Shown: piece after piece, positions 5,107-59,800 of the stretch
Position numbering within the stretch: the stretch's first letter is position 1
Layout: the number at the start of each line of letters is the position of its first letter
Assembly: GCA_041660505.1 (NCBI GenBank)
Contig: JBAZWG010000001.1
Location: forward strand, 307,979-371,978
DNA: 64,000 bases
Origin: Minisyncoccota bacterium
Lineage (GTDB): Bacteria; Patescibacteriota; Minisyncoccia; Phycocordibacterales; JACRKE01
Direction of reading: 5' to 3'
The notes under the pieces: model-generated
Databases searched by the model: none
Told to the model about the DNA's origin: nothing
The model's input: only the letters and a program-made list of their open reading frames with translations
Translations under genes and position numbers: made by a program

Positions 5107-5114
5107 TGACTGGC

Positions 5115-5150
5115 AAGGTTCAACCTTGGGCATTCAAAAGGTTGAACCTT
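5115..5150. repeat. Paired palindromic element AAGGTTCAACCTT-N-AAGGTTGAACCTT (family 1)
   Basis: aaggttcaaccttgggcattcaaaaggttgaacctt lies between paralog 2 and paralog 3. It is the same unit found at nine other sites in the window. Confidence 0.8.
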
Positions 5151-5160
5151 AAGACAGACC

Positions 5161-6900
5161 ATGAACCCAGAAACTAAAAGTTGCCAAAACTGCCAAAACC
5201 CGTTCGTCATCGAGCCGGAGGATTTCGGGTTTTACCAAAAGATAAAAGTTCCCCCGCCGACTTGGTGTCCGGAGTGTCGAAATGTACGACGAATGGCGTG
5301 GAGGGAGTATATGACCCTGTATCGCGGCGTTTGTGCGATGTGCCAGAAACAAATCGTAACCATTCATGCCCCGGGCGGGCCATTCACCATCTATTGCCGA
5401 GAATGCTTCAGATCAGACAAATGGAGCCCTCTTGACTATGGTAGAGATTACGACTTCGACTCTCCGTTTTTTACACAATATCGTCGCTTGATGGAAGCAG
5501 TCCCCCGACCGGCGTTAACCGGCTCGAATCTTGTGAACAGCGATTACACTCACGCCTGCGAGAGCATTAAAAACTGCTACTACACTTTCTTTAGTTTCCA
5601 AACCCAAGATTCGGAAAATTGCTATGCGCTATTTCTGTCTCAAAATTGCTTCGACTGCTATGTGACTGACAATTCTAACCAGGCTTATGAATCATTGCAT
5701 TCAAACAGATTGTACAGAGTGAGTTTCGGCTACTTCGCTGATGAATGCCTAGAATCGTCTTTCTTGTATGACTGTGTCGGCTGTTCAGACTGCTTCGGTT
5801 GTATAAATTTGAGGAAACAAAAATACTGCATTTTTAACGAGCAATTTTCCAAGGAAGATTACAAAGAAAGGATAAAATATTGGGATATCGGCAGTTATGC
5901 CAAACTCAAAGAAGCAAAGAAAAAATTCAGGGAACTCTATCTTTCTACGCCCCACCGTTATGCCAACATCCATCATAGCCAAGATGTTACCGGCGATATC
6001 ATTCGAGACGCTAAAAACTGCCACGCGTGTTTTTCTGCACTTGATGGTGTGGAAAATTGCAAATACCTGTATTTGGGCGGCTTAAACTTGAAAGACAGCA
6101 TGGATGTGAGCGGTGTTGGGTTGTCATCTGCGCTCCTATATGAAGTTTTTGGGATTACCGGAAATGCGTTTCGATGCTTTTTTTCTGTAGGCGGCGGTAA
6201 TTCCCAGAATACCTGGTATAGCGATTGGGCTAATAATTCATCGGACATCTTCGGCTGTATCTCTGTTAAGAATGTTAAAAATTGTATTTTAAATAAAAAG
6301 TATTCAAAAGATGAGTATGAGGCAATGATCACGAAGATCAAGAAACAAATGGACGAAGTCCCGTATGTCGACAAAAAGGGCAGAATATATAAGTTCGGCG
6401 AGTTCTTTCCGACTGAACTATCCGCTTATGCGTACAATGAATGTTTCGGGTTCCCGTTCTATCCGAAGACAAAAGAAGCGGTATTGGCCGAAAACTGGCG
6501 ATGGCAAGAATCAGCTGTCAGATCATATAATATCACCAAGGAGCCGCTAGATTTACCGGACAATATTCGAGATACTCCAGATTCTATTTGCAATGAAATT
6601 GTCGGCTGTATCGATTCCGATTGTGGCCATCAGTGCACCACAGCCTTCAGGATAAGCAAAAATGAACTCAATTTTTACAGGAGCATGAATGTCGCCTTGC
6701 CGAGGAAATGCCCGACATGCCGCACAGATGAACGCTTCGCTTGGCGGAACCGATATACTCTCTGGGAAAGACAATGTATGTGCGCGGTTGAGAGTCATGG
6801 TCATGGCAAACAATGCATAAACCGCTTCGAAACTACCTTCTCACCTGAGAAACCGGAGATTATTTACTGCGATCAATGTTATAAAGCAGAATTTATCTAA
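5161..6900 (+). CDS. Cysteine-rich protein, paralog 3 of the tandem triplet
   Basis: 579 aa. It starts MNPETKSCQNCQNPFVIEPEDFGFYQKIKVPPPTWCPECRNVRRMAWRE, carries a second CxxC...CxxC ribbon (CAMCQK...YCRECF), and ends INRFETTFSPEKPEIIYCDQCYKAEFI. Confidence 0.75.
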   Translation: MNPETKSCQNCQNPFVIEPEDFGFYQKIKVPPPTWCPECRNVRRMAWREYMTLYRGVCAMCQKQIVTIHAPGGPFTIYCRECFRSDKWSPLDYGRDYDFDSPFFTQYRRLMEAVPRPALTGSNLVNSDYTHACESIKNCYYTFFSFQTQDSENCYALFLSQNCFDCYVTDNSNQAYESLHSNRLYRVSFGYFADECLESSFLYDCVGCSDCFGCINLRKQKYCIFNEQFSKEDYKERIKYWDIGSYAKLKEAKKKFRELYLSTPHRYANIHHSQDVTGDIIRDAKNCHACFSALDGVENCKYLYLGGLNLKDSMDVSGVGLSSALLYEVFGITGNAFRCFFSVGGGNSQNTWYSDWANNSSDIFGCISVKNVKNCILNKKYSKDEYEAMITKIKKQMDEVPYVDKKGRIYKFGEFFPTELSAYAYNECFGFPFYPKTKEAVLAENWRWQESAVRSYNITKEPLDLPDNIRDTPDSICNEIVGCIDSDCGHQCTTAFRISKNELNFYRSMNVALPRKCPTCRTDERFAWRNRYTLWERQCMCAVESHGHGKQCINRFETTFSPEKPEIIYCDQCYKAEFI

Positions 6901-7600: not shown

Positions 7601-7636
7601 AAGGTTCAACCTTTTGCTTGCTTAAGGTTGAACCTT
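7601..7636. repeat. Family-1 paired palindrome
   Basis: aaggttcaaccttttgcttgcttaaggttgaacctt sits in the convergent gap before rplE. A degenerate agaaggtttaaccttct follows at 7656-7672. Confidence 0.75.
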
Positions 7637-7669: not shown

Positions 7670-8203
7670 CTATTTCTTGAACGGGACGCCGATGGCTCTT
7701 AAGAGCGCTTCGGTCTGCTTCTTGTCTTTGCTTGTAGTCGTGAAGGTGACGGCCATACCGAAGGCGTCTTTGATGTCTTCATCGGCTGACTCGGGGAAGA
7801 TGGTGTGTTCTTTAATACCCAGGGTATAGTTGCCCATCGCGTCGATACCTGTAACAGGATAGCCACGGAAGTCGCGGATACGAGGCAATGTGATGTTCAA
7901 AAGTTTATCGAGGAAGCCGTACATGCGGGCACCGCGGAGGGTCACCTTCATACCGACGATATCGCCCTGGCGAGATTTGAATGACGCGATAGCAATCTTG
8001 GCCGGGCGCGGAGACGGCTTCTGGCCGGTAATCTTAGCCAAGCGTTCCGAGACGAGCTCAAGGCGCTTCTTGTCGTGGTTCTTGCCGGTACCAACAGAGA
8101 CCACTACTTTCGTCAGTTTAGGCACAGCCATCACGTTCGTCAGCTTGAACTGCTCCTTGAGCTTGGGGGCTTCTGCTTTGTATTTTTCTTGTACGGATGC
8201 CAT
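7670..8203 (-). CDS. rplE: 50S ribosomal protein L5
   Basis: 177 aa. MASVQEKYKAEAPKLKEQFKLTNVMAVPKLTKVVVSVGTG... is a canonical L5 sequence. Confidence 0.95.
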   Translation of the reverse strand: MASVQEKYKAEAPKLKEQFKLTNVMAVPKLTKVVVSVGTGKNHDKKRLELVSERLAKITGQKPSPRPAKIAIASFKSRQGDIVGMKVTLRGARMYGFLDKLLNITLPRIRDFRGYPVTGIDAMGNYTLGIKEHTIFPESADEDIKDAFGMAVTFTTTSKDKKQTEALLRAIGVPFKK

Positions 8204-8217
8204 ATTTTTTGTCTATC

Positions 8218-8255
8218 TTAAGGTTCAACCTTTTGGATGCCTAAGGTTGAACCTT
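8218..8255. repeat. Family-1 paired palindrome
   Basis: ttaaggttcaaccttttggatgcctaaggttgaacctt lies between rplX and rplE. Confidence 0.8.
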
Positions 8256-8263
8256 GCTAGTCA

Positions 8264-8572
8264 TTATTCAAGTTCTGCTCCAGACTTCTTTGTTACGCGA
8301 GTCTTCTTCTCGCCAATCATCTTCACGCCCGTGCGGGTCGGCTTGTCGCTCTTCGGGTCTACGATCATCACGTTCGAGACGTGCATTGGCGCGGCTTGTT
8401 CCACAATCTGACCTTTCTGCCCTTGCTTGCGTGGCTTCTGGTGAGACTTCTTGATATTGACGCCCTCAACAAGCACCTTGTTGTCGGCAGGAAAGGCACG
8501 GAGTACTTTGGCCACTTTGCCACGATCCTTACCTTTTACCACCATTACTTTGTCGCCTTTTTTGATTTTCAT
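8264..8572 (-). CDS. rplX: 50S ribosomal protein L24
   Basis: MKIKKGDKVMVVKGKDRGKVAKVL... matches the KOW-domain L24 protein. Confidence 0.93.
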   Translation of the reverse strand: MKIKKGDKVMVVKGKDRGKVAKVLRAFPADNKVLVEGVNIKKSHQKPRKQGQKGQIVEQAAPMHVSNVMIVDPKSDKPTRTGVKMIGEKKTRVTKKSGAELE

Positions 8573-8645
8573 GATTTTGTTTTTGACTTTCTCCTCAACA
8601 CTCGGTGTTTAGTGCTCCCAACACCGAGTGTTTTCCCGAAAGTCT

Positions 8646-9026
8646 TTATACCACCTCTGGTGCGAGAGAAATAATCTTCTGATAACCGACCTCACCGAGC
8701 TCGCGCGGGATAGGACCGAATACGCGGCCGCCGATTGGCTCTTTCTTCTTCTTCGTATCTTTGTCGATAATAACCACCGCATTCTCGTCGAAGCGCAGGT
8801 AGGTACCGTCCTTGCGGCGGAAGGCCTTCTTCTGGCGCACCACAATAGCCTTTAAGACATCCTTCTTCTTGATCTGGCGGCGCGGTTCGGCAACCTGGAC
8901 GGACAGGATAACCATCTCGCCAATCTCGGCGTAGTGCTTCTTGGAACCGCCAAGCACCTTGAAGATGCGTCCGATACGGGCTCCGGTGTTGTCTGCGATC
9001 TTTACAATTGAGCGTGGTTGAATCAT
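8646..9026 (-). CDS. rplN: 50S ribosomal protein L14
   Basis: MIQPRSIVKIADNTGARIGRIFKVLGGS... matches L14. Confidence 0.95.
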   Translation of the reverse strand: MIQPRSIVKIADNTGARIGRIFKVLGGSKKHYAEIGEMVILSVQVAEPRRQIKKKDVLKAIVVRQKKAFRRKDGTYLRFDENAVVIIDKDTKKKKEPIGGRVFGPIPRELGEVGYQKIISLAPEVV

Positions 9027-9035
9027 GGTAGTTTT

Positions 9036-9098
9036 TGTACTTGGACGCTTGGCTTCTGGGAACAGGGCACGGAAGCCGAGCGTCCAAGTTCCTTATCT
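9036..9098. repeat. Family-2 hairpin element (TTGGACGCTYGGCTTC ... GAAGCCGAGCGTCCAA)
   Basis: 16-bp perfect inverted arms at 9041-9056 and 9072-9087, with loop tgggaacagggcacg. It lies between the rpsQ stop and the rplN start. Confidence 0.8.
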
Positions 9099-9359
9099 TA
9101 TCTTTTCGACAATAGTGAAGCGCTTCTCCTTTGACATCGGACGGCATGGCATCATGCGGACGACATCCCCTGCGGCGTACTCATTCTTCTCGTCATGTGC
9201 CTTAAACTTCTTATCGTGCACGATAAACTTGCCGTACTTCGGGTGTTTCTTATAGGTTGAGACGAGCACGACCGCAGTCTTGTCCATTTTGTGCGACAAG
9301 ATTTTACCTTGTAAGCCCTTGCCTATTTTCTGACCTGTTTTTTGTGTTTTTGTTTCCAT
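9093..9359 (-). CDS. rpsQ: 30S ribosomal protein S17
   Basis: METKTQKTGQKIGKGLQGKILSHKMDKTAVVLVSTYKKHPKYGKFIV... matches S17. The track ORF extends to 9386 through the family-1 repeat (MNLKEDKII prefix). The start is placed at the ATG at 9357-9359. Confidence 0.9.
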   Translation of the reverse strand: METKTQKTGQKIGKGLQGKILSHKMDKTAVVLVSTYKKHPKYGKFIVHDKKFKAHDEKNEYAAGDVVRMMPCRPMSKEKRFTIVEKIR

Positions 9360-9377
9360 AATAATTTTGTCTTCTTT

Positions 9378-9412
9378 AAGGTTCAACCTTTTGGATGCCT
9401 AGGGTTGAACCT
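9378..9412. repeat. Family-1 paired palindrome
   Basis: aaggttcaaccttttggatgcctagggttgaacctt lies between rpmC and rpsQ. Confidence 0.8.
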
Positions 9413-9422
9413 TTTCCAGTCT

Positions 9423-9629
9423 TTACTTTTTCTCGTTCAATTTAGTCAGAATTCGGGCGATATCGCGCTTCATAACACTTGATGCCTTCACGTTCTTCAC
9501 TCGCGCGCCGGAGACACCGAAGCGGAAGTTCTTTAACGCCTCGCGTTTCTCGCCGAGCATTTTCTTCAAGGCATCGGTGCCTGAGTCTTGAACTTCTTTG
9601 CGATGAGTTGTAGTGTGTTTCGTTGCCAT
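9423..9629 (-). CDS. rpmC: 50S ribosomal protein L29
   Basis: MATKHTTTHRKEVQDSGTDALKKMLGEKREALKNFRFGVSGARVKN... matches L29. The track ORF extends N-terminally through the family-2 hairpin. The start is placed at the ATG at 9627-9629. Confidence 0.85.
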   Translation of the reverse strand: MATKHTTTHRKEVQDSGTDALKKMLGEKREALKNFRFGVSGARVKNVKASSVMKRDIARILTKLNEKK

Positions 9630-9643
9630 ATTTTTTGTATTTT

Positions 9644-9702
9644 GTACTTGGACGCTCGGCTTCTGGGAACAGGGCACGGAAGCCGAGCGTCCAAGTTCCT
9701 TA
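9644..9702. repeat. Family-2 hairpin element
   Basis: Arms at 9648-9663 and 9679-9694 carry the same loop as the 9036 copy. It lies between the rplP stop and the rpmC start. Confidence 0.8.
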
Positions 9703-10116
9703 TCTTGCTATAATCCTTGTCTTAACGCCGAGCTTCGTGCCTGCTTTGCGGAGCGCCTCGCGCGCCGTTGCCTCATCGGTACCGTCGATCTCAAAGAGAA
9801 TACGACCCGGGTCCACCTGGACGCAGTAGCCTTGCGGATCGCCCTTGCCCTTACCCATCTTCACTTCTGCCGGCTTGGCGGTGAATGGTCGGTCGGGGAA
9901 GACGCGAATCCAGAGCTTACCCGTCTTCTTCAAGCATCGCATGATTGCTTTGCGGGATGCTTCAATCTCGTTCGAGCGGATGCGGTCGTGACCCTCGGTC
10001 TTGAGTCCGAATGAACCGAAGGCGAGCGTGGTACCGCGCGTCTCCATGCGCACTTTGCCTGTGTTTTTGCGGCCGGTCTGCCACTTTCTGAATTTTACTT
10101 TTTTCGGGAGTAACAT
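9700..10116 (-). CDS. rplP: 50S ribosomal protein L16
   Basis: [40 protein letters not shown]... matches L16. The track ORF start at 10143 lies in the family-1 repeat; the ATG at 10114-10116 is preferred. Confidence 0.92.
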
Positions 10117-10134
10117 AAATTTTTTGTCTTCTTT

Positions 10135-10170
10135 AAGGTTCAACCTTTTGGATGCCTAAGGTTGAACCTT
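10135..10170. repeat. Family-1 paired palindrome
   Basis: aaggttcaaccttttggatgcctaaggttgaacctt lies between rpsC and rplP. Confidence 0.8.
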
Positions 10171-10179
10171 TTCCAGTCT

Positions 10180-10872
10180 TTATTTCTTTGCTTCGTTCTG
10201 CGTCTGCGACTTCTTGGCGGCTTCGAAGATTTCTCCGCGATAAATCCATACTTTGATACCAATGTCGCCATATGACATGTGCGCCTTTTCGCGAGCGAAG
10301 TCGATATCGGCGCGGAGTGTCTGAAGCGGGAGACGTCCTTTCATCAGCGCTTCTCGGCGGCTCATATCAGCACCGCCCAAACGGCCGGACAGTACGACGC
10401 GCACGCCTTGCACGTCGCGGTTGGCGGACACTTTCTCGATTGCTTGCTTCATAACGCGACGGAATGTCAGGCGCTTCTCCAAGCTCTCGGCAATCTGCAT
10501 TGCGACGACTGCCGCATGCTTCTCCGGTACGCGGACCTCTTCAATCTCGAGACGCACATCCTTTGGTACCTCGATCTTCCAGCGTTTGAGCTGGGCCATG
10601 ATGTCGGTGCGGAGTTTGGTTACCCCTTCCCCACTTCTGCCGATAATCATACCCGGGCGGGCGGTCTTGATGATGATTTTATAGCTGTTGGCACCGCGCT
10701 CGAATTCAATACCGTCCAGAGAGTACGGGCGCAATTTCTTTTGTAAATATTCACGAAGAAGCACGTCGGCCTTCAAGAACGAACGGAATTTGCCGGCCTC
10801 GCCATACCAGCGCGAGCGCCAGTCTCGCAGAATTACCAATCTATGTGCATATGGATGGACTTTGTGTGACAT
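10180..10872 (-). CDS. rpsC: 30S ribosomal protein S3
   Basis: 230 aa. MSHKVHPYAHRLVILRDWRSRWYGEAGKFRSFL...KH domain...GIKVWIYRGE matches S3. Confidence 0.95.
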   Translation of the reverse strand: MSHKVHPYAHRLVILRDWRSRWYGEAGKFRSFLKADVLLREYLQKKLRPYSLDGIEFERGANSYKIIIKTARPGMIIGRSGEGVTKLRTDIMAQLKRWKIEVPKDVRLEIEEVRVPEKHAAVVAMQIAESLEKRLTFRRVMKQAIEKVSANRDVQGVRVVLSGRLGGADMSRREALMKGRLPLQTLRADIDFAREKAHMSYGDIGIKVWIYRGEIFEAAKKSQTQNEAKK

Positions 10873-10874
10873 AA

Positions 10875-11270
10875 TTATTTTTGAACTTGGACGCTTGGCT
10901 TCCGGGCCTTGTTTTGAGAAGCCGAGCGTCCAAGTTCCTTACCTTCATCGAGCGTAAGCGAGATGTGGCTGGTGCGCTTGTGGATCGGGTAGGCTCGGCC
11001 GAAGGCGCGGGGCATTGAGCGCTTCATTGTGACACCGGCGTTAACCGTTACATTCTTCACCATCAAGCTGTCTTTGTTCAATTTAAAATTATTCTCTGCG
11101 TTGGCAACAGCGGACATAAGCAATTTCTTCATTGGAGCCGCACCGCGCTTAACCATAAGGTCGAGCTGGGCCAAAGCGTCACTCACCTGCCTGCCGCGAA
11201 TAGCGTCGGCAATGAGACGGACTTTGCGGGGTGATTGTCTATAAGATTGTAATGATGCTTTGACTTCCAT
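10875..11270 (-). CDS. rplV: 50S ribosomal protein L22, with a repeat-encoded C-terminal extension
   Basis: MEVKASLQSYRQSPRKVRLIADAIRGRQVSDALAQLDLM... matches L22. The last ~19 aa (LGRSASQNKARKPSVQVQK) are encoded by the family-2 hairpin. The stop abuts the rpsC ATG. Confidence 0.9.
   Translation of the reverse strand: MEVKASLQSYRQSPRKVRLIADAIRGRQVSDALAQLDLMVKRGAAPMKKLLMSAVANAENNFKLNKDSLMVKNVTVNAGVTMKRSMPRAFGRAYPIHKRTSHISLTLDEGKELGRSASQNKARKPSVQVQK
10882..10942. repeat. Family-2 hairpin element, translated as the C-terminal tail of rplV
   Basis: Arms at 10887-10902 and 10919-10934 carry a different loop (cgggccttgttttgaga). No stop codon separates the conserved L22 body from the element. 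Confidence 0.75.
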
Positions 11271-11301
11271 ATTCTTAAATTCTCAAATTCTCTAATTCTG
11301 T

Positions 11302-11655
11302 TTATTTCTTCGCTCCCGTGGCTGCAGTCGTCGCCTCTTTGGCAGACTTAGCGGCGTTAAGCTCAGCCTCCTTCTTTTTGGCTTCAAGCTCCTTCTGCAT
11401 CTTACCACCATGGCGAAGGAATTTGCGGGTAACCGAGAATTCGCCCAATCGATGCCCCACCATGTCTTCGGTCACAAGGACCTCGATATGTGCACGGCCG
11501 TTGTGGACGCCAAACTTGAATCCGACCATCTCCGGCGCGATCTGGCAGGCGCGCGACCAAGTCTTAATAACCCCGGCTTGATCCGGCTTCTTACCCTCAA
11601 TCTTTTTCATGAGTCGCGGGTCGACGTATGGGCCTTTCTTGAGTGATCGTGACAT
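11302..11655 (-). CDS. rpsS: 30S ribosomal protein S19
   Basis: [57 protein letters not shown]... matches S19, with a Lys/Ala-rich C-terminal tail. Confidence 0.93.
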
Positions 11656-11731
11656 TGTTTTGAAAATAATGTCCCCAAAGGGACAATGCGCTATACTACC
11701 AGAAAACAGCCCCCTCTGTCAACGAAAATAT

Positions 11732-11762
11732 CCCATGTCCGAGGTCTCGCCTCGGACATGGG
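11732..11762. repeat. REP-like hairpin (family 3) immediately after the transposase stop
   Basis: cccatgtccgaggtctcgcctcggacatggg has a 13-bp stem and a 5-nt loop. Confidence 0.85.
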
Positions 11763-11763
11763 A

Positions 11764-12564
11764 TTATTCCTTAAATCCGAGCTCGGCTATGGCTGGGTCC
11801 TCCCCCTCAACCAGTTCTTCAGCATCTTCGAACAAGAAGTCTCGGTGCTCTTTTTTATCTTCGAAGATCTCCCAAAATAACTCGGGCGTAAGTAGTGAAG
11901 GAAAGTTTTTCGCTCCCAAATAGTCAGCACAGCTCGACCAGCGATAATTCTTCAAAAAAGCCTCTATTCTTCTATTGTCCGAGGCGAGACCTCGGACATC
12001 GTGTATTGGCATGAGATCGACGGGATTAAGGTGTATATATCGCGCCAATACCGGAAGATACTGCTCATTGGTCACTTCCTTGCTCTTGAATAGTCCTTGG
12101 TAAAGTGCGCCTGTGCGCTTGTGCTTTTTATTAAAAAACATCGTATGCCCTGTCAGAACTTTTTGCATGAACTTACTCAATCCCGTATCGGTCTTCGGCG
12201 AAAGTAGGAGGTGGATATGGTTCGGCATCAGCGCATAGGCCACAATGTCTACGAGCTTCTCCCGTTTATCGGGCTTTTCTGTCTTGTCCGAGGTCTCGCC
12301 TCGGACATTAGAATTTGAGGGGGTTTTACCTGCGTCGCCCTTCAGTTTACCTTCGTTGCGGATCTTTTCTATCGGTGCGGTGTCGTTACAGACATACAAA
12401 TAATGAATAAACCGCCTGTAGTCGCGATTGTCCAGAAAAATATCGCGCTTCTCCGTCCCCCGATTATAGATATGATAATAAGCTCCCGCCTCAAATGGTA
12501 TTCGTTCCATATAGCCTAGTATACCACGGATAATGGCGGAGGTTGAACCTCCGCCATATAACAA
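11764..12564 (-). mobile_element. tnpA: IS200/IS605-type HuH tyrosine transposase (REP-associated RAYT-like), inserted between rpsS and rplB
   Basis: It contains an HuH motif (ALMPNHIHLLL) and a downstream tyrosine region (ARYIHLNP). The likely real start is MERIPFEAGAYYHIYNRG at 12510. Two copies of the GTCCGAGG-N5-CCTCGGAC hairpin lie in-frame inside it, at 11976-11999 and 12285-12307, encoding VRGLASD and VRGETSD. A ggcggaggttgaacctccgcc hairpin at 12533-12553 sits just upstream. Confidence 0.75.
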
Positions 12565-12611
12565 AAAACACCATTCTTATTGAATAGTGTTTTTTAGTTT
12601 TGATTTTCTTT

Positions 12612-13451
12612 TTATCGAGCTTTGCGGCCGGGGCGTCTACTGACGACGAAGACGTTTGAATACTTCTTGGGTGTGCGGGTTTTGTGGCCTCCGGTGACCT
12701 TTCCAGTGCGGGTCTTTGGGCGCTTGGTGCCACGGCCTTGGCGGCCTTCTCCACCACCATATGGATGATCTACCGGGTTCATGGCCGTACCACGGACCTT
12801 CGGACGTCTACCGAGCCAGCGTGATTTGCCTGCCTTGCCTAATTGAACGAGTTGGTTCTCATCATTCGATACTGCGCCAATCGTGGCGTAACTGTTCTCG
12901 TTGACTTTGCGGACTTCGCCGGATGGGAGTTTGATACTCGTAAATCCTGCGTCGGATGCAAGCACTTCACAAAAATTACCGGCCGAGCGGGCGATCTTGG
13001 CGCCGCCACGGGGGTGAATTTCGATATTATAGACAAATGTTCCGGCCATCAGTTTCTTGAGCGGCAGTCTGTTGCCGGTTGCGACCGGTGCATTCTCGGA
13101 CACAATAAAGCTGTCGCCTACTTTCATGTTCTTCGGTGCCAAAATATAGCGACGTTCACCATCTTTATAGAGTACGAGCGCAATGAAGCCTGTGCGGTTC
13201 GGGTCATATTCAACAGACTCGACAGTCGCCGGAATATCAAATTTGTTGTACATGAAATCCACAAGGCGATACATGCGCTTGTGTCCGCCACCTTTGTGGA
13301 ACGAAGTAACACGACCCTTATTATTACGGCCAACATCGCGCTTACCACCCAAGGTAAGAGCCTTATGTGGTTCATTACGCGTAATAAACTCCCGGTAATT
13401 GATGCCGGTCATATTGCGTCTGGATTTGGATGTGGGAGAGTAGTGTTTCAT
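12612..13451 (-). CDS. rplB: 50S ribosomal protein L2
   Basis: 279 aa. It carries the ...GGGHKRMYR... and ...HPYGGGEGR... motifs of L2. Confidence 0.96.
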   Translation of the reverse strand: MKHYSPTSKSRRNMTGINYREFITRNEPHKALTLGGKRDVGRNNKGRVTSFHKGGGHKRMYRLVDFMYNKFDIPATVESVEYDPNRTGFIALVLYKDGERRYILAPKNMKVGDSFIVSENAPVATGNRLPLKKLMAGTFVYNIEIHPRGGAKIARSAGNFCEVLASDAGFTSIKLPSGEVRKVNENSYATIGAVSNDENQLVQLGKAGKSRWLGRRPKVRGTAMNPVDHPYGGGEGRQGRGTKRPKTRTGKVTGGHKTRTPKKYSNVFVVSRRPGRKAR

Positions 13452-13460
13452 ATTGGTTTT

Positions 13461-13499
13461 CCGAGGCGAGACCTCCGCCTTTGCCGGAGGTCTCGCCTC
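13461..13499. repeat. GC-rich hairpin related to family 3 (GAGGCGAGACCTCCG / CGGAGGTCTCGCCTC)
   Basis: 15-bp perfect inverted arms around loop cctttgc, between rplW and rplB. Confidence 0.8.
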
Positions 13500-13507
13500 T
13501 TCTATCG

Positions 13508-13804
13508 TTATGCAATTTCAATCTTATCGCCCTTTTTTAAATAGATTACCGCTTTCTTCACGCCTCCCTTGAAGCCGGCTTTACCGCGGACGACGACCGC
13601 CTTGCGCGGATTGGTCGTGATAGCCACCTTCTTCGGTGTGACACCGAACAGTTTCTTAACGGCATTAACCACTTCTGCCTTGTTGGCGCGCGCGTCAATC
13701 TCGAAGGTATATGTAGGAGTGTCCACGCGCTCGGCAAGCATCGTCGCCTTCTCTGTTATGCGCGGTCTTCGTAATACCGTAAATTGTGCGTGTAAATTTT
13801 TCAT
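13508..13804 (-). CDS. rplW: 50S ribosomal protein L23
   Basis: MKNLHAQFTVLRRPRITEKATMLAERVDTPTYTFEIDARANKAEVVNAVKKLFGV... matches L23. Confidence 0.92.
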   Translation of the reverse strand: MKNLHAQFTVLRRPRITEKATMLAERVDTPTYTFEIDARANKAEVVNAVKKLFGVTPKKVAITTNPRKAVVVRGKAGFKGGVKKAVIYLKKGDKIEIA

Positions 13805-13805
13805 A

Positions 13806-14468
13806 TTATGCGCGGTTGGCCAGCTTCTTTAAACTTTTTTCCGGATTCTCGATTACGATATATTTATACTGCAGTGCATCGACCGGGTTAATGTTGCGTG
13901 CCTCATCAATCTTGGCCGACTGGATATTGCGGAAGCTCTTGAAGAGTTCGGTATTGGCCTCGCCCATAAGGACAAGGGCGCGCGAACCATTCTTGTACGC
14001 GATCTTCTCGTAGCCGGAAATTTTCGAAAATGCAACAAGACTCTCGGCTGCTTTCTTGGTCTTGGGTGCGGCGCCAAAGTTGAAGCTGTCAACGAAAAGC
14101 AATTCGCCCTCCTTCATCTTTTGCGACAAGATAGCGAACAAGGCCTTGGTCTTCATCTGCTTGTTGACCTTGCGAACGTAGTTGCGCTCCTTTAATGGTC
14201 CGTGTGTGACTCCACCGTGGCGCCATAATGGCGAACGGATAGAGCCATGGCGTGCGCGGCCTGTCCCCTTCTGCTTCCACGGCTTGATACCGCCACCGGC
14301 CACTTCGGCGCGATCTTTGGCATCCGCCCACGGCTCACGAGCTGACGATTGCATCGAAGTAATCACTTGGTGCACCATGTCGCTATTCCACGGCGTCGAG
14401 AATACCGAACGTGGGAGTGTTACCTTGCCCGTCTCTTTGCCCTCTTGATTGTAGACTTTTGCTTCCAT
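13806..14468 (-). CDS. rplD: 50S ribosomal protein L4
   Basis: 220 aa. ...PWKQKGTGRARHGSIRSPLWRHGGVTHGP... matches L4. Confidence 0.94.
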   Translation of the reverse strand: MEAKVYNQEGKETGKVTLPRSVFSTPWNSDMVHQVITSMQSSAREPWADAKDRAEVAGGGIKPWKQKGTGRARHGSIRSPLWRHGGVTHGPLKERNYVRKVNKQMKTKALFAILSQKMKEGELLFVDSFNFGAAPKTKKAAESLVAFSKISGYEKIAYKNGSRALVLMGEANTELFKSFRNIQSAKIDEARNINPVDALQYKYIVIENPEKSLKKLANRA

Positions 14469-14498
14469 ATGTATTTTCTAAAAACTACAAACTAAAAA

Positions 14499-15110
14499 CT
14501 AGTTCTTGCTTCGTATTTCCAACAGTGTTCCCCGACGTCCCGGAACTGCGCCTTCGATAAATAATTTGCCTGCTTCTGAATCAACCCTGACGATTTTGAG
14601 ATTGCGAACGGTGACGCGGTCACTGCCCATGCGGCCGCCCATTTTCTTGCCGCGGAAGACGCGTTGGATACCGCCGGCACCGAGTGAGCCCGGGGCATGT
14701 TCCGAGTGCTTCTGACCATGCGAGCGCGGACCGCCATGGAAGCCGTGACGTTTGATAACACCTTGGAATCCTTTACCCTTAGACGTGCCCGAGACGTGTA
14801 CAACATCGCCCTCTTTGAACTGTGTTAGATCAAGGGCTGAACCGCGAGCAAGATCCGGAACGGTGCGCTTGAAGCGGAACTCTTTAATGGCTTTGGGCTT
14901 GCCTAACTCCTTAACATGTCCGGCAACGGACTTGGAAATATGCTTTCTTGTGCCATAAGCAACCTGCGCGGCATCATATCCATCCTTGGCTTTTGTCTTT
15001 ACTTGAGTGACGACATTGGCGGCGGCGTTAATAACCGTGACCGGATGCACCGTGCCTTTGTCATCGAAGATCTGACTCATGTATTCTTTTGTACCCAAAA
15101 TGAACTTCAT
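14499..15110 (-). CDS. rplC: 50S ribosomal protein L3
   Basis: 203 aa. MKFILGTKEYMSQIFDDKGTVHPVTVI...SGTSKGKGFQGVIKRHGF... matches L3. Confidence 0.95.
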   Translation of the reverse strand: MKFILGTKEYMSQIFDDKGTVHPVTVINAAANVVTQVKTKAKDGYDAAQVAYGTRKHISKSVAGHVKELGKPKAIKEFRFKRTVPDLARGSALDLTQFKEGDVVHVSGTSKGKGFQGVIKRHGFHGGPRSHGQKHSEHAPGSLGAGGIQRVFRGKKMGGRMGSDRVTVRNLKIVRVDSEAGKLFIEGAVPGRRGTLLEIRSKN

Positions 15111-15133
15111 AACGGAATTTTAGAATTTAGGAA

Positions 15134-15481
15134 TTACAGCATCTTTACGTCAATATTCACACCGGCTGGCAAACTTAAATTCGTGAGCGACTCGACAATC
15201 TTGGCCGATGGCGACAGGATGTCGATCAAGCGCTTGTGCGTACGCATCTCGAACTGTTCGCGGGAATTTTTGTCGATGAAGGCACCTCTATTGACCGTAT
15301 ACTTCTTGATATCGGTCGGGAGCGGAGTCGGACCTTCTACTGCCGCCTCGTTCCTCATCGCGGTATCTATAATCTGGCGAACACTCTGATCCAGGATCTT
15401 GTGTTCGTAAGCAGACACGCGAATGCGGAGCTTCGTCGGCTTGTCCTTGGCTGATTCAATTTTCTTGGTTTTTGTTGCCAT
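15134..15481 (-). CDS. rpsJ: 30S ribosomal protein S10
   Basis: ...[40 protein letters not shown]... matches S10. Confidence 0.94.
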
Positions 15482-15487
15482 AGTGTA

Positions 15488-15527
15488 ATCGGAGGTCCGA
15501 CCTCCCTCTGGAGGTCGGACCTCCGAT
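15488..15527. repeat. GC-rich double palindrome (CGGAGGTCCGACCTCC arms)
   Basis: atcggaggtccgacctcc-ctct-ggaggtcggacctccgat lies between tuf and rpsJ. It is related to the CGGAGGTC family. Confidence 0.8.
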
Positions 15528-15531
15528 TTCT

Positions 15532-16722
15532 TTACGCGTTGATTTTCGTTACAACTCCTGCACCCACCGTCTTGCCACCTTCACGGATAGCGAAGCGTTG
15601 CTTCTCTTCCAAAGCTACCGGGGCCACGAGCTTGACTGTGATGTTGACCGTATCACCAGGCATAACCATCTCTGTGCCGGCCGGCAATGTCACGTCGCCC
15701 GTCACGTCCGTCGTGCGGACGTAGAACTGCGGCTTGTAACCATTGAAAAACGGCGTGTGACGGCCTCCTTCTTCTTTCTTCAAAACGTAAATTTCTGCGG
15801 TGAAATCGGTGTGAGGAGTGACTGAACCAGTCTTACATAGGACCTGACCGCGGGTAACATCTTCTTTCTTGGTACCGCGGAGGAGAATACCGGCATTGTC
15901 GCCAGCGATACCCTCGTCAAGCTGTTTGTTGAACATTTCGATACCGGTAACGGTCGTCTTGGAAGTCGGGTGAATGCCGACAATTTCTACTTCTTCACCT
16001 ACCTTAATCTTCCCGCGTTCTACACGGCCGGTGACCACAGTACCGCGGCCTTCAATAGAGAACACGTCTTCGATAGGCATGAGGAATGGCTTGGCGACAT
16101 CGCGAACAGGCTCAGGAATATAAGTATCCAAGGCGTCTGTGAGCTCAAGAACTTTCTTGACCCACTCATCATTTACATCCTTGCCTTCCAGCGCCTTAAG
16201 GCCGGAGCCGCGGATAATCGGACAATCCTTATCGAAGCCCTGCTTGGCCAATAGGTCGCGTACCTCCTCTTCAACGAGGTCGATAAGCTCTTTGTCGTCA
16301 ACCATGTCGCATTTGTTCAAGAAGACAAGTACCTTTGGCACACCAATCTGCTTGGCCAAAAGAATGTGCTCGCGAGTCTGTGGCATCACGCCATCGGTTG
16401 CGGCAACAACGAGAATAGCCCCATCCATCTGGGCGGCACCGGTGATCATGTTCTTGATATAGTCGGCGTGTCCCGGAGCGTCGATGTGCGCGTAGTGGCG
16501 TTTATCTGTGGCGTATTCGTTGTGAGAAAGGGCGATAGTAATACCGCGCGCCTTTTCTTCCGGCGCAGAGTCAATCTGGTCTACCGACTTCATGCGCACA
16601 GTCTTACCCGCCAAGTTGAGCGAGTGGAGGATGGCCGCGGTCAAAGTGGTCTTGCCGTGGTCAACGTGACCGATGGTGCCGACATTTACGTGCGGCTTGG
16701 AACGATCAAATGCTTCTGCCAT
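15532..16722 (-). CDS. tuf: Elongation factor Tu
   Basis: 396 aa. It has [18 protein letters not shown] and NKCD, the canonical GTPase motifs of EF-Tu. Confidence 0.98.
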
Positions 16723-16807
16723 ATTTTTTAAATAAGATTATTAATACTAATTTTTTATAACGTCAGGAATCGCGCTCTACGAGGACGCAATACCTATTTA
16801 AAACAAA

Positions 16808-16845
16808 GCCACGCACATAATCATGCGTGGCTTGTATAGTAGCAG
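16808..16845 (-). terminator. Rho-independent terminator after the 1284-aa surface protein gene
   Basis: On the minus strand, gccacgca-tgattatgt-gcgtggc is followed by tttgtttt. Confidence 0.6.
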
Positions 16846-16867
16846 ATTCTAGGGCTATCCGTCAATA

Positions 16868-19800
16868 CTACTTGAGCGAGGCTTTCAAGGCTTGCAGAGC
16901 CTTAAGAATACTGGCAAGTTGTAGATTCATACTCTTCGTATTTAACGATGCTGCCGCCGCCGTAACCGTAAAGTTAGCGGTAGCCCTTCCACCATCAGGG
17001 TTTGTGACAACAACTTCCTTGCTTCCGGCTGCGGTAATGTTGCTACCGAGTACTTGAGCAACCATCCAAGTGCTAGATCGTGCCCTTCCACTGCCATCCG
17101 ACGATAGAACTTGATTTACCGGCACTCCACCAAAGGTGACGGTGGAATTGAGGGCAAAGTTGGTTCCATTAATAGTTAGCCAGAAATATGAGGGGTTTGA
17201 GCCGGCAACGAGTGTTGCCGGAGAGAGCGAGGTGATGGTGGGAGTAGTGGCGGCAGGCGTGACAACCGTGAATACTGATGGTAGTCTCACATAGCCACCT
17301 GCGGACTGATAGACTATTAAACCATAACTGCCGGGTAGGAAATTGGTTGGTATATCCCAAGTCACACTATTGCCAGTAATATTTTGGGCAATATAGATAT
17401 TGCTTGGCCCCTCTGTCGCTAACGTAATAGGGCCTGTAGAACCGGCGGGTACTCTTGTAAAACCAACTGTTACCCTAGAGCCTGGATTTATTATGCTACC
17501 TGATGCTGGTGTGACTGTGATACCGCTTACCGAGGTGGTGGGGATGGGGGTAGCGGAGACCACTGTGTAATCCACTGTCACTGTATTCCCTATCTGTGCG
17601 CCTGACCTCTGCAATTTCCACTGTCGACTGATTGCTCCGAGATTACTCGTACCTTCAGTGAGGAATGTCACGGTGTAGCTTCCATCGCTATTTCGCACCA
17701 CCGTACTGCAGTTTGAATTACTCTGCAAAGAGATAGAACTGCACACCTGACCTCCGTTAAACTCCGGTCCTCTGTATAGATTAACATCGTTACCCCACAC
17801 CGCCGTACCTGTGTTTTTCACAGTGATAGTCGGTCGGAATGTACTGTTTTGAACCACATTTTTGTTCGCCGGAACTCCACCTACTGTGAGAGTCGCTTGA
17901 TAGGTAGGTTCAGCGACAACTGGGGCTCCATACTGCACATCGGCCTGGTAGTACCAACCTGACACCTGCGTGTCACCGTTATATGCGACTACGACATAGT
18001 GATATTTTGTTCCAAGTACCAGAGTCCTGCCGTTACTACCTGTATCTACACAAGATGGCGCATTCGGGCTGAAGCCGATGGCACAGTCAGTGCTAACGTC
18101 AGACCAGAAATCCTTACGGTCAGAGAGACTCCCGTCTGTCGGGCTAACGACATAGCGCAAGAAAGCGTATCTGTTGTAATTTGGGTGCTTAGGCCAAGTG
18201 AAGGTTATCTTGCCGGCGGTTGTGTCTGCGACTGCTGTGGCGGTGGTCGGTACGGTCTGGGTAGCATCGATAATAATATTCCTTATAGAGGAACATGTGG
18301 TCAAATTCTTTTTACATACGCGTATCTGTAGATTTCCAACAGGAGTATCGCCGCCAGTACCCAGATTCAATGCACCAAGACCTAATTGGATATCGGCCAC
18401 AGAAGTGTTCCAATTTGTAGCACTTGCAGCTTTATATTGAACCGTGGCTAATTCAGTTGAAGAAATTTCGAGAAATGACCACGTTAGTGACACTGATTGA
18501 CCCATAGTGACATGAGCACCCTCAATAGGATTATTTATGGTAATAGACCCCATGATTGTTGGTGTCGTTCCATACACCACATCGGCTTGATATGAGTATT
18601 CACTTGTAGGAACTTGGCTTATGTAGCCGTTCCATGCATATACTTTGTATCGATATTTTGTTCCAAGCACTAGACCTGATTTGTCGACACAAGACGGTGA
18701 GTTACGATCGAAAGAGTTTGAACTGGTTGTGCTTGAACATTCACCAGTGTCTGACCATAAATATTTTTCCACGGCAGATTCCGTACCAGCTGAATTTACC
18801 GTCCTGCGAGAAACAACATATCTATTGTATGTCGGGTGCTTCGGCCAAGTGAATGTAACCTTACCGGCGGTTGTGTCTGCGACCGCGGAAGCCGTTAGGG
18901 TTGTTGGGTTGTTGATTGTAATACCGTCTGTTTTTGCCGTTGCGATTATTAAGCCTTCGGGATGGACCGTGGCATCAGCGAGGGCGATACTAAGCAGATA
19001 TTCACCTGCTGGGATTGCATTAGTATTCGGTAAAGTCCAGCTCATTGTCCCGGCTGATGCGATTGGATGAGCACTCAAACCGACGTCTTGCTGTGGTAGC
19101 CCGGTGTCGCTACCTACTGGATACAGCGATACCACCACAAATAGATTATGATTTGTCGGCAAATTTGTAGTCGTCCAATTTACTGCGTAAGTAGCACCTT
19201 TCTGTAAACGGTTGCCACCGCTCGGTCCAGTAATTGTGATTGTCGGGGAAACCGGCGCTGTCGCAGTCAGGCGGGTCCCTGTACCGTATACAGTCCCTGC
19301 GGAACGCAATTGAATCAAACCTGCATCTGCGCTGTCGATCTTTCCGTCATCGTTTACATCACACGACCTACTGGCCGGACATGAGAATCCGGGTTTATTT
19401 ATGGAAAGGTTGTACATAAACGACACATCCGTGCTGGTGAATGCGCCGTCGCCGTTCACATCAAATGTTGAATCGGGAACATTAATGACTCCATTGTCCA
19501 ATCTGGCTCCCTGACCAAACTTAGCTTGCGAAAGCCTCGATGCCATGAGTGCCGTATCGCTGTCGTCCACTTTTCCATCTCCATTCAAATCACACTTCTC
19601 TATCGTACAGACAGATGTTTTGCCGAGAGTGAAGTTGATTATATTCTGCTGATCTGAAGAATCTACTCTGCCGTTTGCATTTATATCGAGAGCACTGTCG
19701 AGAAGTTTGATGTCTCCGGTGTTTGTCGGGACAAAACGTGCACCGGTACCAAATATCATGTTGGTGCCCATAGTTCTGTAAACCATAAGCTGTGAGTCAA

Positions 19801-29724: not shown

Positions 29725-29760
29725 AAGGTTCGACCTTTTACTTGCTTAAGGTCGAACCTT
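29725..29760. repeat. Family-1 paired palindrome (tcgacc variant)
   Basis: aaggttcgaccttttacttgcttaaggtcgaacctt. Confidence 0.7.
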
Positions 29761-30273: not shown

Positions 30274-30309
30274 AAGGTTCAACCTTTTGGATGCCTAAGG
30301 TTGAACCTT
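30274..30309. repeat. Family-1 paired palindrome
   Basis: aaggttcaaccttttggatgcctaaggttgaacctt lies between rpsL and rpsG. Confidence 0.8.
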
Positions 30310-52090: not shown

Positions 52091-52160
52091 GAATTTATAT
52101 ATTATTGTAATTACTCTATTATATTCCTAAATTCTAAAATTCTTTAATTCTGTCTGTGTA

Positions 52161-53972: not shown

Positions 53973-53983
53973 GAGATCGACAC

Positions 53984-54024
53984 CGAGGTTCAACCTTTTT
54001 GATGCCTAAGGTTGAACCTCGGTG
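53984..54024. repeat. Family-1 paired palindrome, extended variant (ccgaggttcaacc...ggttgaacctcgg)
   Basis: accgaggttcaacctttttgatgcctaaggttgaacctcggtgg. Confidence 0.8.
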
Positions 54025-58394: not shown

Positions 58395-58510
58395 TATACT
58401 AGAGGTGCGCTGTTTAAAACAGGTATTTGACTGTTGATAACTTTGTATGGTAGTATATTATGTCTGTCCGTCGGTATCCGAACGGACATTTCTTTTATAA
58501 AATAATGAAT

Positions 58511-58552
58511 ACCGAGGTTCAACCTTGAGCATCTTAAAGGTTGAACCTCGGT
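58511..58552. repeat. Family-1 paired palindrome, extended variant
   Basis: accgaggttcaaccttgagcatcttaaaggttgaacctcggt lies directly upstream of nusA. Confidence 0.8.
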
Positions 58553-58563
58553 ACCCACAAATT

Positions 58564-59718: not shown

Positions 59719-59800
59719 AAAAACGGAATTTAAGAATTTTGGAATTAAAGAATATTCTGAAATTCTCAAATTCCTTAATTCTAAAATTCTGTCAAAAGCC

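Follow-up and report, generated by a model that had tools for sequence, protein, structure and literature searches.

The Y1 gene and its palindromes

The window analyzed here is a stretch of 64,000 nt of a Ca. Paceibacterota genome, from assembly GCA_041660505.1 (contig JBAZWG010000001.1, positions 307,979-371,978 of the forward strand; coordinates below are window positions). On its minus strand the genes tuf, rpsJ, rplC, rplD, rplW and rplB are followed by an open reading frame (ORF) of the Y1 HuH transposase family and then by rpsS, rplV, rpsC, rplP and onward. This Y1 gene, together with the palindromes that flank and interrupt it (Table 1), is the subject of the present work. As a preliminary description of the same DNA had it, the ORF lies between rpsS and rplB and on the same strand as these genes. 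In its longer reading (11764-12564, minus strand) it spans 266 aa from a TTG codon; the ATG at 12510 is the likely start codon and gives a protein of 248 aa. The protein is 100% identical to P0001, a protein annotated as 'transposase' on a 719-kb contig of Ca. Paceibacterota (candidate phyla radiation (CPR)/Patescibacteria).

A profile search of the ORF yielded a match to Pfam Y1_Tnp (PF01797) of 39.6 bits (cut-off 23; E = 6.7e-10). In a Pfam scan at E ≤ 0.1 this was the sole domain found, and no Bac_DnaA_C, HTH_23 or HTH_28 was seen in the C-terminal tail. The HuH (NHIHLL) and tyrosine (RYIHLNP) motifs listed in the preliminary description are present and fall on columns that are invariant in 22 homologues, the former as PNHIHLL (H98/H100) and the latter with Y158 as the catalytic tyrosine. 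The sequence YIHLNP corresponds to the class-2 signature Y---NP and not to Y---Q; the tail extends for ~85 aa beyond it and ends in YRWSS. Because a profile search of the PDB by sequence returned nothing at E ≤ 0.01 (ISDra2 and 4ER8 were marginal, with E values of 0.035-0.2), a comparison of folds was needed. The best Foldseek match of the AlphaFold2 (AF2) model (predicted template modelling score, pTM, 0.77) in the PDB was 4ER8, E. coli TnpA_REP with a repetitive extragenic palindromic (REP) hairpin (E = 1.1e-5), followed by the TnpA proteins of IS608 and ISDra2 (2A6O and 2VJV among the top matches). Collectively, these data demonstrate that the ORF is a member of the Y1 HuH transposase family.

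One copy of the gene is present in the window, which covers about 9% of the genome, its protein cluster occurs on one contig, and no tnpB is present with the module. The position between rplB and rpsS is kept in the loci L001-L003 (90% protein identity) and L004 (67%), and comparison of the window gene with that of L001 gave a dN/dS of 0.05-0.06 at a dS of about 1.1. These values point to a functional, constrained protein gene under strong purifying selection. With a single copy in the window, the same position in the 90% and 67% orthologues and a dN/dS of ~0.05, the gene looks like that of a REP-associated tyrosine transposase (RAYT) rather than like that of an insertion sequence (IS).

The palindromes of the window gene are of two types. 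Type A, GTCCGAGG-N5-CCTCGGAC, is found exactly three times in the 64 kb (at 11737, 11977 and 12286), compared with 0.03 copies expected from shuffles; these are the hairpin after the stop codon and the two in-frame internal copies, in both loop orientations, that had been reported before. The downstream copy shares the last base of the Y1 stop codon and is terminator-like, being followed by ATTTTCGTT, while the internal copies have no T-run. In-frame palindromes 1 and 2, whose loops are in opposite orientation, encode VRGETSD and VRGLASD, respectively. Palindrome 1 is located ahead of the HuH motif in the loop that connects helix A to strand 2 (loop 1), and palindrome 2 in the loop behind the Tyr helix (loop 2). 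In the AF2 model the predicted local distance difference test score (pLDDT) falls below 50 internally only at residues 49-79, which comprise palindrome 1, and at residues 171-176, at palindrome 2. According to the model, the coded peptides would fall in permissive loops that are predicted to be disordered. The upstream palindrome, which was not on the earlier list, is of type B. Both types have a GAGGT...CCTC core in common and differ by two compensated stem pairs and the loop.

The 3' end of the type-B palindrome lies 22 nt ahead of the ATG, directly upstream of a predicted extended -10 element, and the palindrome covers the spacer/-35 region of this promoter-like site. The extended -10 is conserved in L004 and reads TGATACAAT in L001. 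The same arrangement is seen throughout the family: 56 of 75 genes have a -10-like hexamer whose end is 4-9 nt from the ATG, a Shine-Dalgarno-like motif is present in only 3 of 75, and the upstream palindrome directly precedes the -10, with a median distance of 22 nt from its 3' end to the ATG. This suggests a leaderless or near-leaderless Y1 mRNA, with the palindrome possibly placed as an insulator or operator.

Palindrome turnover and its pattern in the family

In an alignment of the window with L001 and L004 the positions of the palindromes are the same and their types differ. All four sites are of type A in L001. In the window gene this holds for three of them, the upstream site being of type B. 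In L004 the upstream, loop-1 and downstream sites are of type B, and loop 2 is without a palindrome. The stems in the window and in L001 do not differ despite the dS given above, and the loops are exactly reverse-complemented at two of the three shared type-A sites (in-frame palindrome 2 and the downstream palindrome). As a change of type involves two compensated stem pairs and the loop, the same changes at several sites must be templated. The comparison of these genomes thus indicates an active replacement or flipping of the hairpins of the Y1 gene. L001 contains two extra small ORFs (5420-5955) in the stretch from rplB to the Y1 gene, one for a hydrophobic protein of 100 aa with no Pfam match and one for a peptide of ~47 aa; a type-A hairpin follows each of them.

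A scan of species-representative genomes provided 80 loci of relatives at 35-46% identity, nearly all of them titled as Patescibacteria/CPR lineages or as unclassified 'bacterium' metagenome-assembled genomes, and 76 distinct genes were analyzed. Nearly all 76 homologues are bracketed by one lineage-specific perfect palindrome, whose copies lie ~20-50 nt ahead of the ATG and 0-25 nt behind the stop codon; examples are AATATTCGGACTTGCGAAGTCCGAATATT (L009), ACAAGGTTCAACCTTGT (L039) and a 38-nt palindrome (L026). An interior palindrome that equals the flanking one was detected in 23 of the 76 Y1 genes and in 1 of 223 size-matched control ORFs of the same loci (Fisher p = 2e-14). Strong hairpins within the coding sequence (CDS) were present in 31 of 76 genes, compared with a mean of 7.2 and a maximum of 14 in codon shuffles; 22 of these 31 hairpins are in loop 1 and 6 just behind YIHLNP. 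At the loop-1 motif [QEKR]G.[TSPA][LFS], codons 1-2 are perfectly complementary to codons 4-5 in 12 of 32 cases, with 0.18 expected from the codon usage of the family. The palindromy acts at the nucleotide and not at the amino-acid level, and the in-frame hairpins are specifically tied to the Y1 gene family as a trait of the whole family. In the closer relatives P0004 and P0009, for example, TCGGAGGTCCGACCTCCGA is found upstream, inside (coding GGPTS) and downstream of the gene.

Two further measures were tried and rejected. Raw hairpin density (0.84 per kb in the Y1 CDS and 0.61 per kb in the rest of the loci) did not separate the two, hairpins being abundant throughout these genomes. The plain sharing of 11-mers between CDS and flanks had a control rate of 24%, caused by AT-rich low complexity; the palindrome-identity test was used in its place.

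The rplB-rpsS junction and other hairpins of the window

The Y1 module is flanked by a terminator-like hairpin after rplB and a promoter-like site for rpsS and the following genes. The hairpin at 12563-12595, a putative terminator, is kept in L004 via compensatory changes, and the promoter-like site is conserved in both L001 and L004. Four further Paceibacteria loci (L104-L107) were obtained via their S19 proteins. In L104, L106 and L107 the junction is empty (52-95 nt), with TTGACA-17-TAnnnT still present before rpsS; L105 also has a promoter-like site before rpsS, and in both L106 and L105 a terminator follows rplB. Three unrelated ORFs, including a DAGK-family gene, occupy the junction in L105 (1969-3500); the 229-aa ORF inserted there was tested as a possible Y1 relative and is not one. 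In L101 (Vogelbacteria; 5001-6673) and L051 (9992-12546) the distance from the Y1 gene to rpsS, which lies downstream, is 1-1.9 kb, and the sequence examined for each locus showed no rplB upstream of the Y1 gene. A widespread association with the S10 operon was rejected: the Y1 gene is between rplB and rpsS only in the lineage of the window, and, besides L101 and L051, the other loci have it elsewhere.

The comparison supports the view that in Paceibacteria the rplB-rpsS junction would be a transcription-unit boundary and a recurrent site of insertions and breakpoints, and that the Y1 module, placed between the terminator-like hairpin and the promoter-like site, would interrupt no operon. The preliminary description had put the gene within an essential operon and had proposed a comparison with strains that lack the insertion. 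Relatives without it are L104, L106 and L107, and their empty junctions, which keep the promoter-like site and in some cases the terminator, point to a boundary and not to the interior of an operon. The former statement was therefore too strong, and with the junction read as a boundary most of the surprise about an 'essential operon' is gone.

Table 1. Positions of the Y1 gene, its palindromes, the neighbouring features and the hairpin doublets in the window (strand given as "." where a feature is palindromic)
Feature	Position	Strand	Basis or remark
Y1 HuH (RAYT-like) gene	11764..12510	-	248 aa from ATG at 12510; Pfam, AF2/Foldseek, invariant columns
Upstream palindrome, type B (ATGGCGGAGGTTGAACCTCCGCCAT)	12533..12557	.	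11-bp stem, 3-nt loop
In-frame palindrome 1, type A (TGTCCGAGG-N5-CCTCGGACA)	12285..12307	.	encodes NVRGETSDK, aa 68-76
In-frame palindrome 2, type A, loop flipped	11976..11998	.	encodes DVRGLASDN, aa 171-179
Downstream palindrome, type A	11730..11764	.	15-bp stem; -18.9 kcal/mol as single-stranded DNA, z = -10
Extended -10 of Y1 gene (TGGTATACT)	12518..12526	-	ends 7 nt before ATG; sequence reading
rplB (ribosomal protein L2), upstream neighbour	12612..13451	-	Pfam Ribosomal_L2_N + Ribosomal_L2_C
Terminator-like hairpin and T-run after rplB (AAAAAACACTATTC-AATAA-GAATGGTGTTTTTT)	12563..12595	-	-10.4 kcal/mol, z = -5.3
Promoter-like site of rpsS and following genes, TTGACA-18-TAGTAT, TG extension	11693..11722	-	10/12 consensus positions
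Small hairpin TGTCCC-TTTG-GGGACA, rpsS leader	11670..11685	-	conserved in L001, L004, L104
rpsS (ribosomal protein S19), downstream neighbour	11302..11655	-	Pfam Ribosomal_S19
Doublet of type-A core, REPIN-like, GAGGCGAGACCTC-N11-GAGGTCTCGCCTC	13463..13499	.	fills rplW-rplB spacer; -22.3 kcal/mol
Doublet of TCGGAGGTCCGACCTCCGA type	15487..15528	.	fills tuf-rpsJ spacer; -25.3 kcal/mol
AAGGTTCAACCTT-N10-AAGGTTGAACCTT doublets	5115-5150, 7601-7636, 8220-8255, 9378-9413, 10135-10170		
AAGGTTCAACCTT-N10-AAGGTTGAACCTT doublets, continued	29725-29760, 30274-30309, 53981-54024, 58510-58553		

Hairpins of the class RAGGT-N3-ACCTY number 23 in the window, compared with 0.18 expected. Most of them belong to REPIN-like doublets of the form AAGGTTCAACCTT-N10-AAGGTTGAACCTT, which fill intergenic spacers, several of them in the ribosomal cluster. 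No Y1 gene with a hairpin of the AAGGTTCAACCTT type is present in the window; homologues in other genomes (e.g., L039) carry exactly this core. The related hairpins that had been noticed near 13461-13499 and 15488-15527 are real and consist of doublets, one of the type-A core and one of the TCGGAGGTCCGACCTCCGA type, the latter being the palindrome found around and within the Y1 genes P0004 and P0009 of other genomes. The conserved arms of the hairpins (e.g., 12538-12552 and 15491-15524) generally read GGAGGT/ACCTCC or AAGGT/ACCTT, that is, a Shine-Dalgarno-like sequence paired with one like the 3' tail of 16S rRNA. In the metagenome contigs L086/L088 and L092, type-A copies abut other hairpins (CAAGGTTCAACCTTG; AACTTGGACGC...), similar to mosaic clusters of REPs of the kind of bacterial interspersed mosaic elements (BIMEs).

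Hairpins of the RAGGT-N3-ACCTY class were also found in-frame in other genes of the window. Two paralogous Cys-rich ORFs on the plus strand (407-2209 and 3352-5106) contain them at 2055-2073 and 4952-4970, 151 nt before their stop codons, as GTGGAGGTTTAACCTCCAC (CGGLTST) and GCGGAGGTCTCGCCTCCGC (CGGLASA; type-B stem with type-A loop), respectively; a third paralogue (5161-6900) has no hairpin at that site. Pfam gave no match for ORF 3352-5106, the one that was scanned. A PilB/GspE-like ATPase (ORF 52161-53993, minus strand; MshEN + T2SSE) has three tandem hairpin-coded units in its inter-domain linker at about 53440-53500 (...GGRGETSAETGGLTSAAENVRGLTSG...). A third family of repeats, likewise in the ribosomal cluster, comprises long palindromes (ACTTGGACGCTCGGCTTC...GAAGCCGAGCGTCCAAGT; 53-67 nt) at 9033-9099, 9640-9706 and 10879-10945; the last of these is located 3'-terminally inside the rplV ORF, by which L22 would gain ~20 residues (…LGRSASQNKARKPSVQVQK). 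Arrays with a period of 8 nt (AAATTCTN repeats) are located at 11261-11307, 52113-52159 and 59744-59798, directly upstream of minus-strand genes, e.g., in the rpsS-rplV spacer. An Rfam scan of 8000-17500 revealed only a sub-threshold chance match (symR, 23.7 bits compared with 61).

Known systems and competing explanations

RAYTs and REPs are the textbook example of a domesticated bacterial transposase, and the spread of REPs and the co-evolution of enzyme and hairpin are still unsolved. REPtrons and E. coli TnpA_REP are reportedly treated in Nunvar 2010, Ton-Hoang 2012 and Messing 2012 (PDB 4ER8). The module of the window has in common with REPtrons the Y1 HuH fold with 4ER8 as the best match, the Y---NP motif, the single copy and the housekeeping-like inheritance, as well as palindromes on both sides of the gene that vary from lineage to lineage and apparently co-evolve with it. 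It differs in that its palindromes are perfect and symmetric, with no bulge and no GTAG tag, in that the palindrome of the window clade is nearly private to the gene, compared with hundreds of REP copies, and in that the protein is ~90 aa longer, with a WSS tail and a helical C-terminus, and scores below the NCBIfam equivalog cut-off. We found in the literature no description of a leaderless promoter with a palindrome directly upstream of the -10 for REPtrons. That RAYT genes have flanking REPs ('REPtrons') and behave as single-copy, housekeeping-like genes is established (PMC8266576, PMC5581495), and TnpA_REP carries out cleavage and strand transfer on single-stranded REPs in vitro in a GTAG-dependent manner (Corneloup 2021, PMC8266576).

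The main reading of the preliminary description, a RAYT-like Y1 gene with REP-like hairpins of its own in-frame, is essentially right. The in-frame copies, which it had called unusual, are real and linked to the Y1 family, but they have a precedent in the tnpA_REP genes of subclass 2.4 (Bertels group 4), to which in-frame REPs were said to be unique (Quentin 2018, PMC6006769). Cognate REPs inside and flanking the transposase gene, an intact frame and a peripheral variable region are shared with that subclass, whereas the genes described here have NH[FIY]H, FQ/YQ, YIHLNP and WSS, insertions that precede the HuH motif or follow the Tyr helix, and CPR/Patescibacteria hosts. By motif comparison, the second variant of subclass 2.1 (NH[YF]H, FQ, Y[IV]HLNP, SS tail, ~238 aa) matches the family consensus (NHFH, LFQG, YIHLNP and WSS; NHIH, LYQG, YIHLNP and WSS in the window protein), and the flanking repeats of the family are readable as terminal inverted repeats. 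Subclass 2.1, or Bertels group 1, is also known as TIRYT, a group that is said to be treated in Di Nocera 2013 as well. Its members were reported to have no REP-like structures nearby and to carry a helix-turn-helix (HTH) tail (Bac_DnaA_C, HTH_23 or HTH_28) (PMC6006769), whereas Pfam revealed no HTH domain in the tail of the window protein and matched hairpins are nearly universal in its clade.

The IS200/IS605 elements (IS200, IS608 and ISDra2) likewise have a Y1 HuH core and a gene bordered by hairpins, and the left-end hairpin of IS200 also blocks read-through transcription. They differ from the module by their multiple copies, a TnpA of about 150 aa, the Y---Q motif, asymmetric subterminal guide hairpins and, often, tnpB, none of which was seen in the 64 kb. 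With intragenic REPs and Rickettsia palindromic elements the module shares short palindromes that are in-frame at permissive loops, here also in the linker of the PilB-like protein and in the two Cys-rich paralogues; the difference is that the palindromes described here are much shorter, at 21-31 nt, and have their strongest position-conserved association with the gene of the putative mobilizing enzyme itself. The Rickettsia elements are reportedly the subject of Ogata 2000. Both kinds of intragenic element are known (Di Nocera 2013, PMC3733652). Our literature search found no paper on this Y1 clade or on its hairpins. As judged from the sequences, the clade, its fixed three-site architecture with a predicted leaderless promoter, a loop conserved as insertion site and a copy number close to private appear to be new, as do the switching of types and the flipping of loops that can be seen directly between genomes.

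We consider it probable that the locus represents a REPtron-like module composed of a single-copy, vertically inherited class-2 Y1 HuH gene (RAYT/TnpA_REP-like) and its cognate palindromes. The module consists of a palindrome, the predicted extended -10 and leaderless ATG, the HuH/Tyr gene and a second palindrome, with one or two more copies in-frame. By analogy to E. coli TnpA_REP acting on REPs, the Y1 protein would bind the hairpins in single-stranded DNA and cleave and rejoin them. Since the enzyme would be made beside its own gene, hairpins near and inside the gene might be repeatedly swapped for the current variant, drawn from either strand. Such a cis-biased replacement would have the consequence that all copies at one gene match, that lineages differ, that one site lags (in the window, the upstream type-B copy) and that loops flip. 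Insertions would survive only in-frame and in permissive loops, because the gene is under strong purifying selection. The flanking copies would probably act in addition as insulator or terminator and possibly as an operator beside the promoter. Taken together, we infer an enzyme-mediated, cis-biased replacement of hairpins that is filtered by selection.

Several observations weigh against the REPtron-like module. Regarding the RAYT identity given in the preliminary description, the Y1_Tnp score and the best fold match agree with it, but the score of the protein against the NCBIfam RAYT equivalog REP_Tyr_transpos (48.3 bits, cut-off 80) is below threshold, and the characteristic tags are missing. 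E. coli-type RAYTs need a GTAG guide tetranucleotide. At types A and B, neither GTAG (GT[AG]G) nor 'double foot' tags were found, and the flanks, (A)TGTCCGAGG...CCTCGGACA(T), are symmetric; without GTAG and with full symmetry, the choice of strand or cleavage site would have no evident basis. In some other lineages CTAC...GTAG is found within the stem, with a polarity opposite to that of the RAYT tag. The copy number also differs from expectation: at nearly all loci the ±10 kb flanks contain no further copy of the gene's own palindrome, no type A is present away from the Y1 gene in the 64 kb, and the dispersed AAGGTTCAACCTT doublets are of another type than the gene's own hairpins. An exact-match scan retrieved the type-A hairpin in only 12 metagenome contigs, unlike classical REP populations; as no Y1 gene was detected on 11 of these 12 contigs, type A is dispersed, but at low copy number. 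In the window a strong over-representation, as had been expected of the hairpin genome-wide, holds only for the RAGGT-N3-ACCTY class, and the exact hairpin is confined to the gene. Copies within the CDS are absent from about 60-70% of the family members and from one whole clade and are thus not required for the protein. Finally, ordinary short-tract gene conversion or template switching at hairpins may homogenize the copies without any enzyme.

A different view of the in-gene palindrome is that it is not a tolerated insertion but a selected cis-acting element. The three matched sites, beside the promoter, in the CDS and at the 3' end, might enable the protein to regulate or sense its own gene, e.g., via an operator or via an RNA or single-stranded DNA hairpin roadblock; or else the gene might be a protected master copy for the seeding of palindromes elsewhere. 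The position of the insertion is conserved across homologues of 35-67% identity that have quite different palindromes, the window and L001 have identical stems at a dS of about 1.1, the upstream palindrome is fixed directly before the -10 of the presumably leaderless gene at its median distance of 22 nt from the ATG, and interior and flanking palindromes match far more often than in the controls (23/76 and 1/223). The absence of the in-CDS copies from most members and a whole clade, and their decay in some (GGSTY in L101, HGKTL in L014), speak against selection for such an element, as do loop orientations that are not conserved and hairpins of the same class that are in-frame in unrelated genes of the window, as opportunistic insertion would predict; the identity of the stems is equally explained by recent homogenization. 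We regard a selected element as possible but rather unlikely. We are also doubtful of a more far-reaching version, in which the in-CDS palindrome of this large, CPR-specific clade of Y1 enzymes is maintained as a functional site. The gene would then be a three-site, self-recognizing and autoregulating module and the protected master copy of its hairpin, from which intergenic spacers and permissive protein loops are seeded. If this were true, much of the punctuation of operons in these streamlined genomes would be the work of a single domesticated enzyme.

That an active, autonomous insertion sequence of the IS200/IS605 type jumped into the ribosomal cluster, with the flanking hairpins as its ends, would fit with the Y1_Tnp domain, with a CDS bordered by palindromes as in IS200, with a module that a palindrome delimits on each side and that is placed after the terminator-like hairpin of rplB and before the promoter-like site of rpsS, and with the empty rplB-rpsS junction of related genomes. 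It is made highly improbable by a score of 15.8 bits against the NCBIfam transpos_IS200 equivalog (cut-off 55), the Y---NP instead of the Y---Q motif, a length of 248 aa with a C-terminal tail compared with about 150 aa, the one copy in 64 kb with a protein cluster on one contig and no tnpB, the conserved position in the 90% and 67% orthologues at a dS above 1, and ends that are perfect symmetric palindromes identical to an internal copy. Least credible of all is that the hairpins are ordinary terminators or mRNA-stability structures unlinked to the Y1 gene, with internal copies that arose by chance or by a preference at the protein level. GC-containing stems of at least 7 bp are indeed common, at the densities reported above, and the downstream copy scores as terminator-like; however, the exact hairpin is found three times compared with 0.03 expected, the types switch together between orthologues, the internal copies lack a T-run, and the identity test and the codon complementarity (12/32 compared with 0.18) largely refute this explanation.

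The location in the ribosomal operon is itself ordinary, a promoter-bearing junction that is a recurrent site of insertions and breakpoints. The system offers an unusually clean natural experiment, with short, perfect palindromes in very few copies per genome, three to four of them at fixed positions around and inside one gene, and a comparison of genomes at 90% and 67% enzyme identity makes the replacement of types and the inversion of loops visible. Subclass 2.4 is not alone in having in-gene REPs, and a clade with subclass-2.1-like motifs can have REPtron architecture. The tiny, streamlined genomes of CPR/Patescibacteria still keep systems of this sort, and several of their proteins accommodate peptides coded by hairpins.

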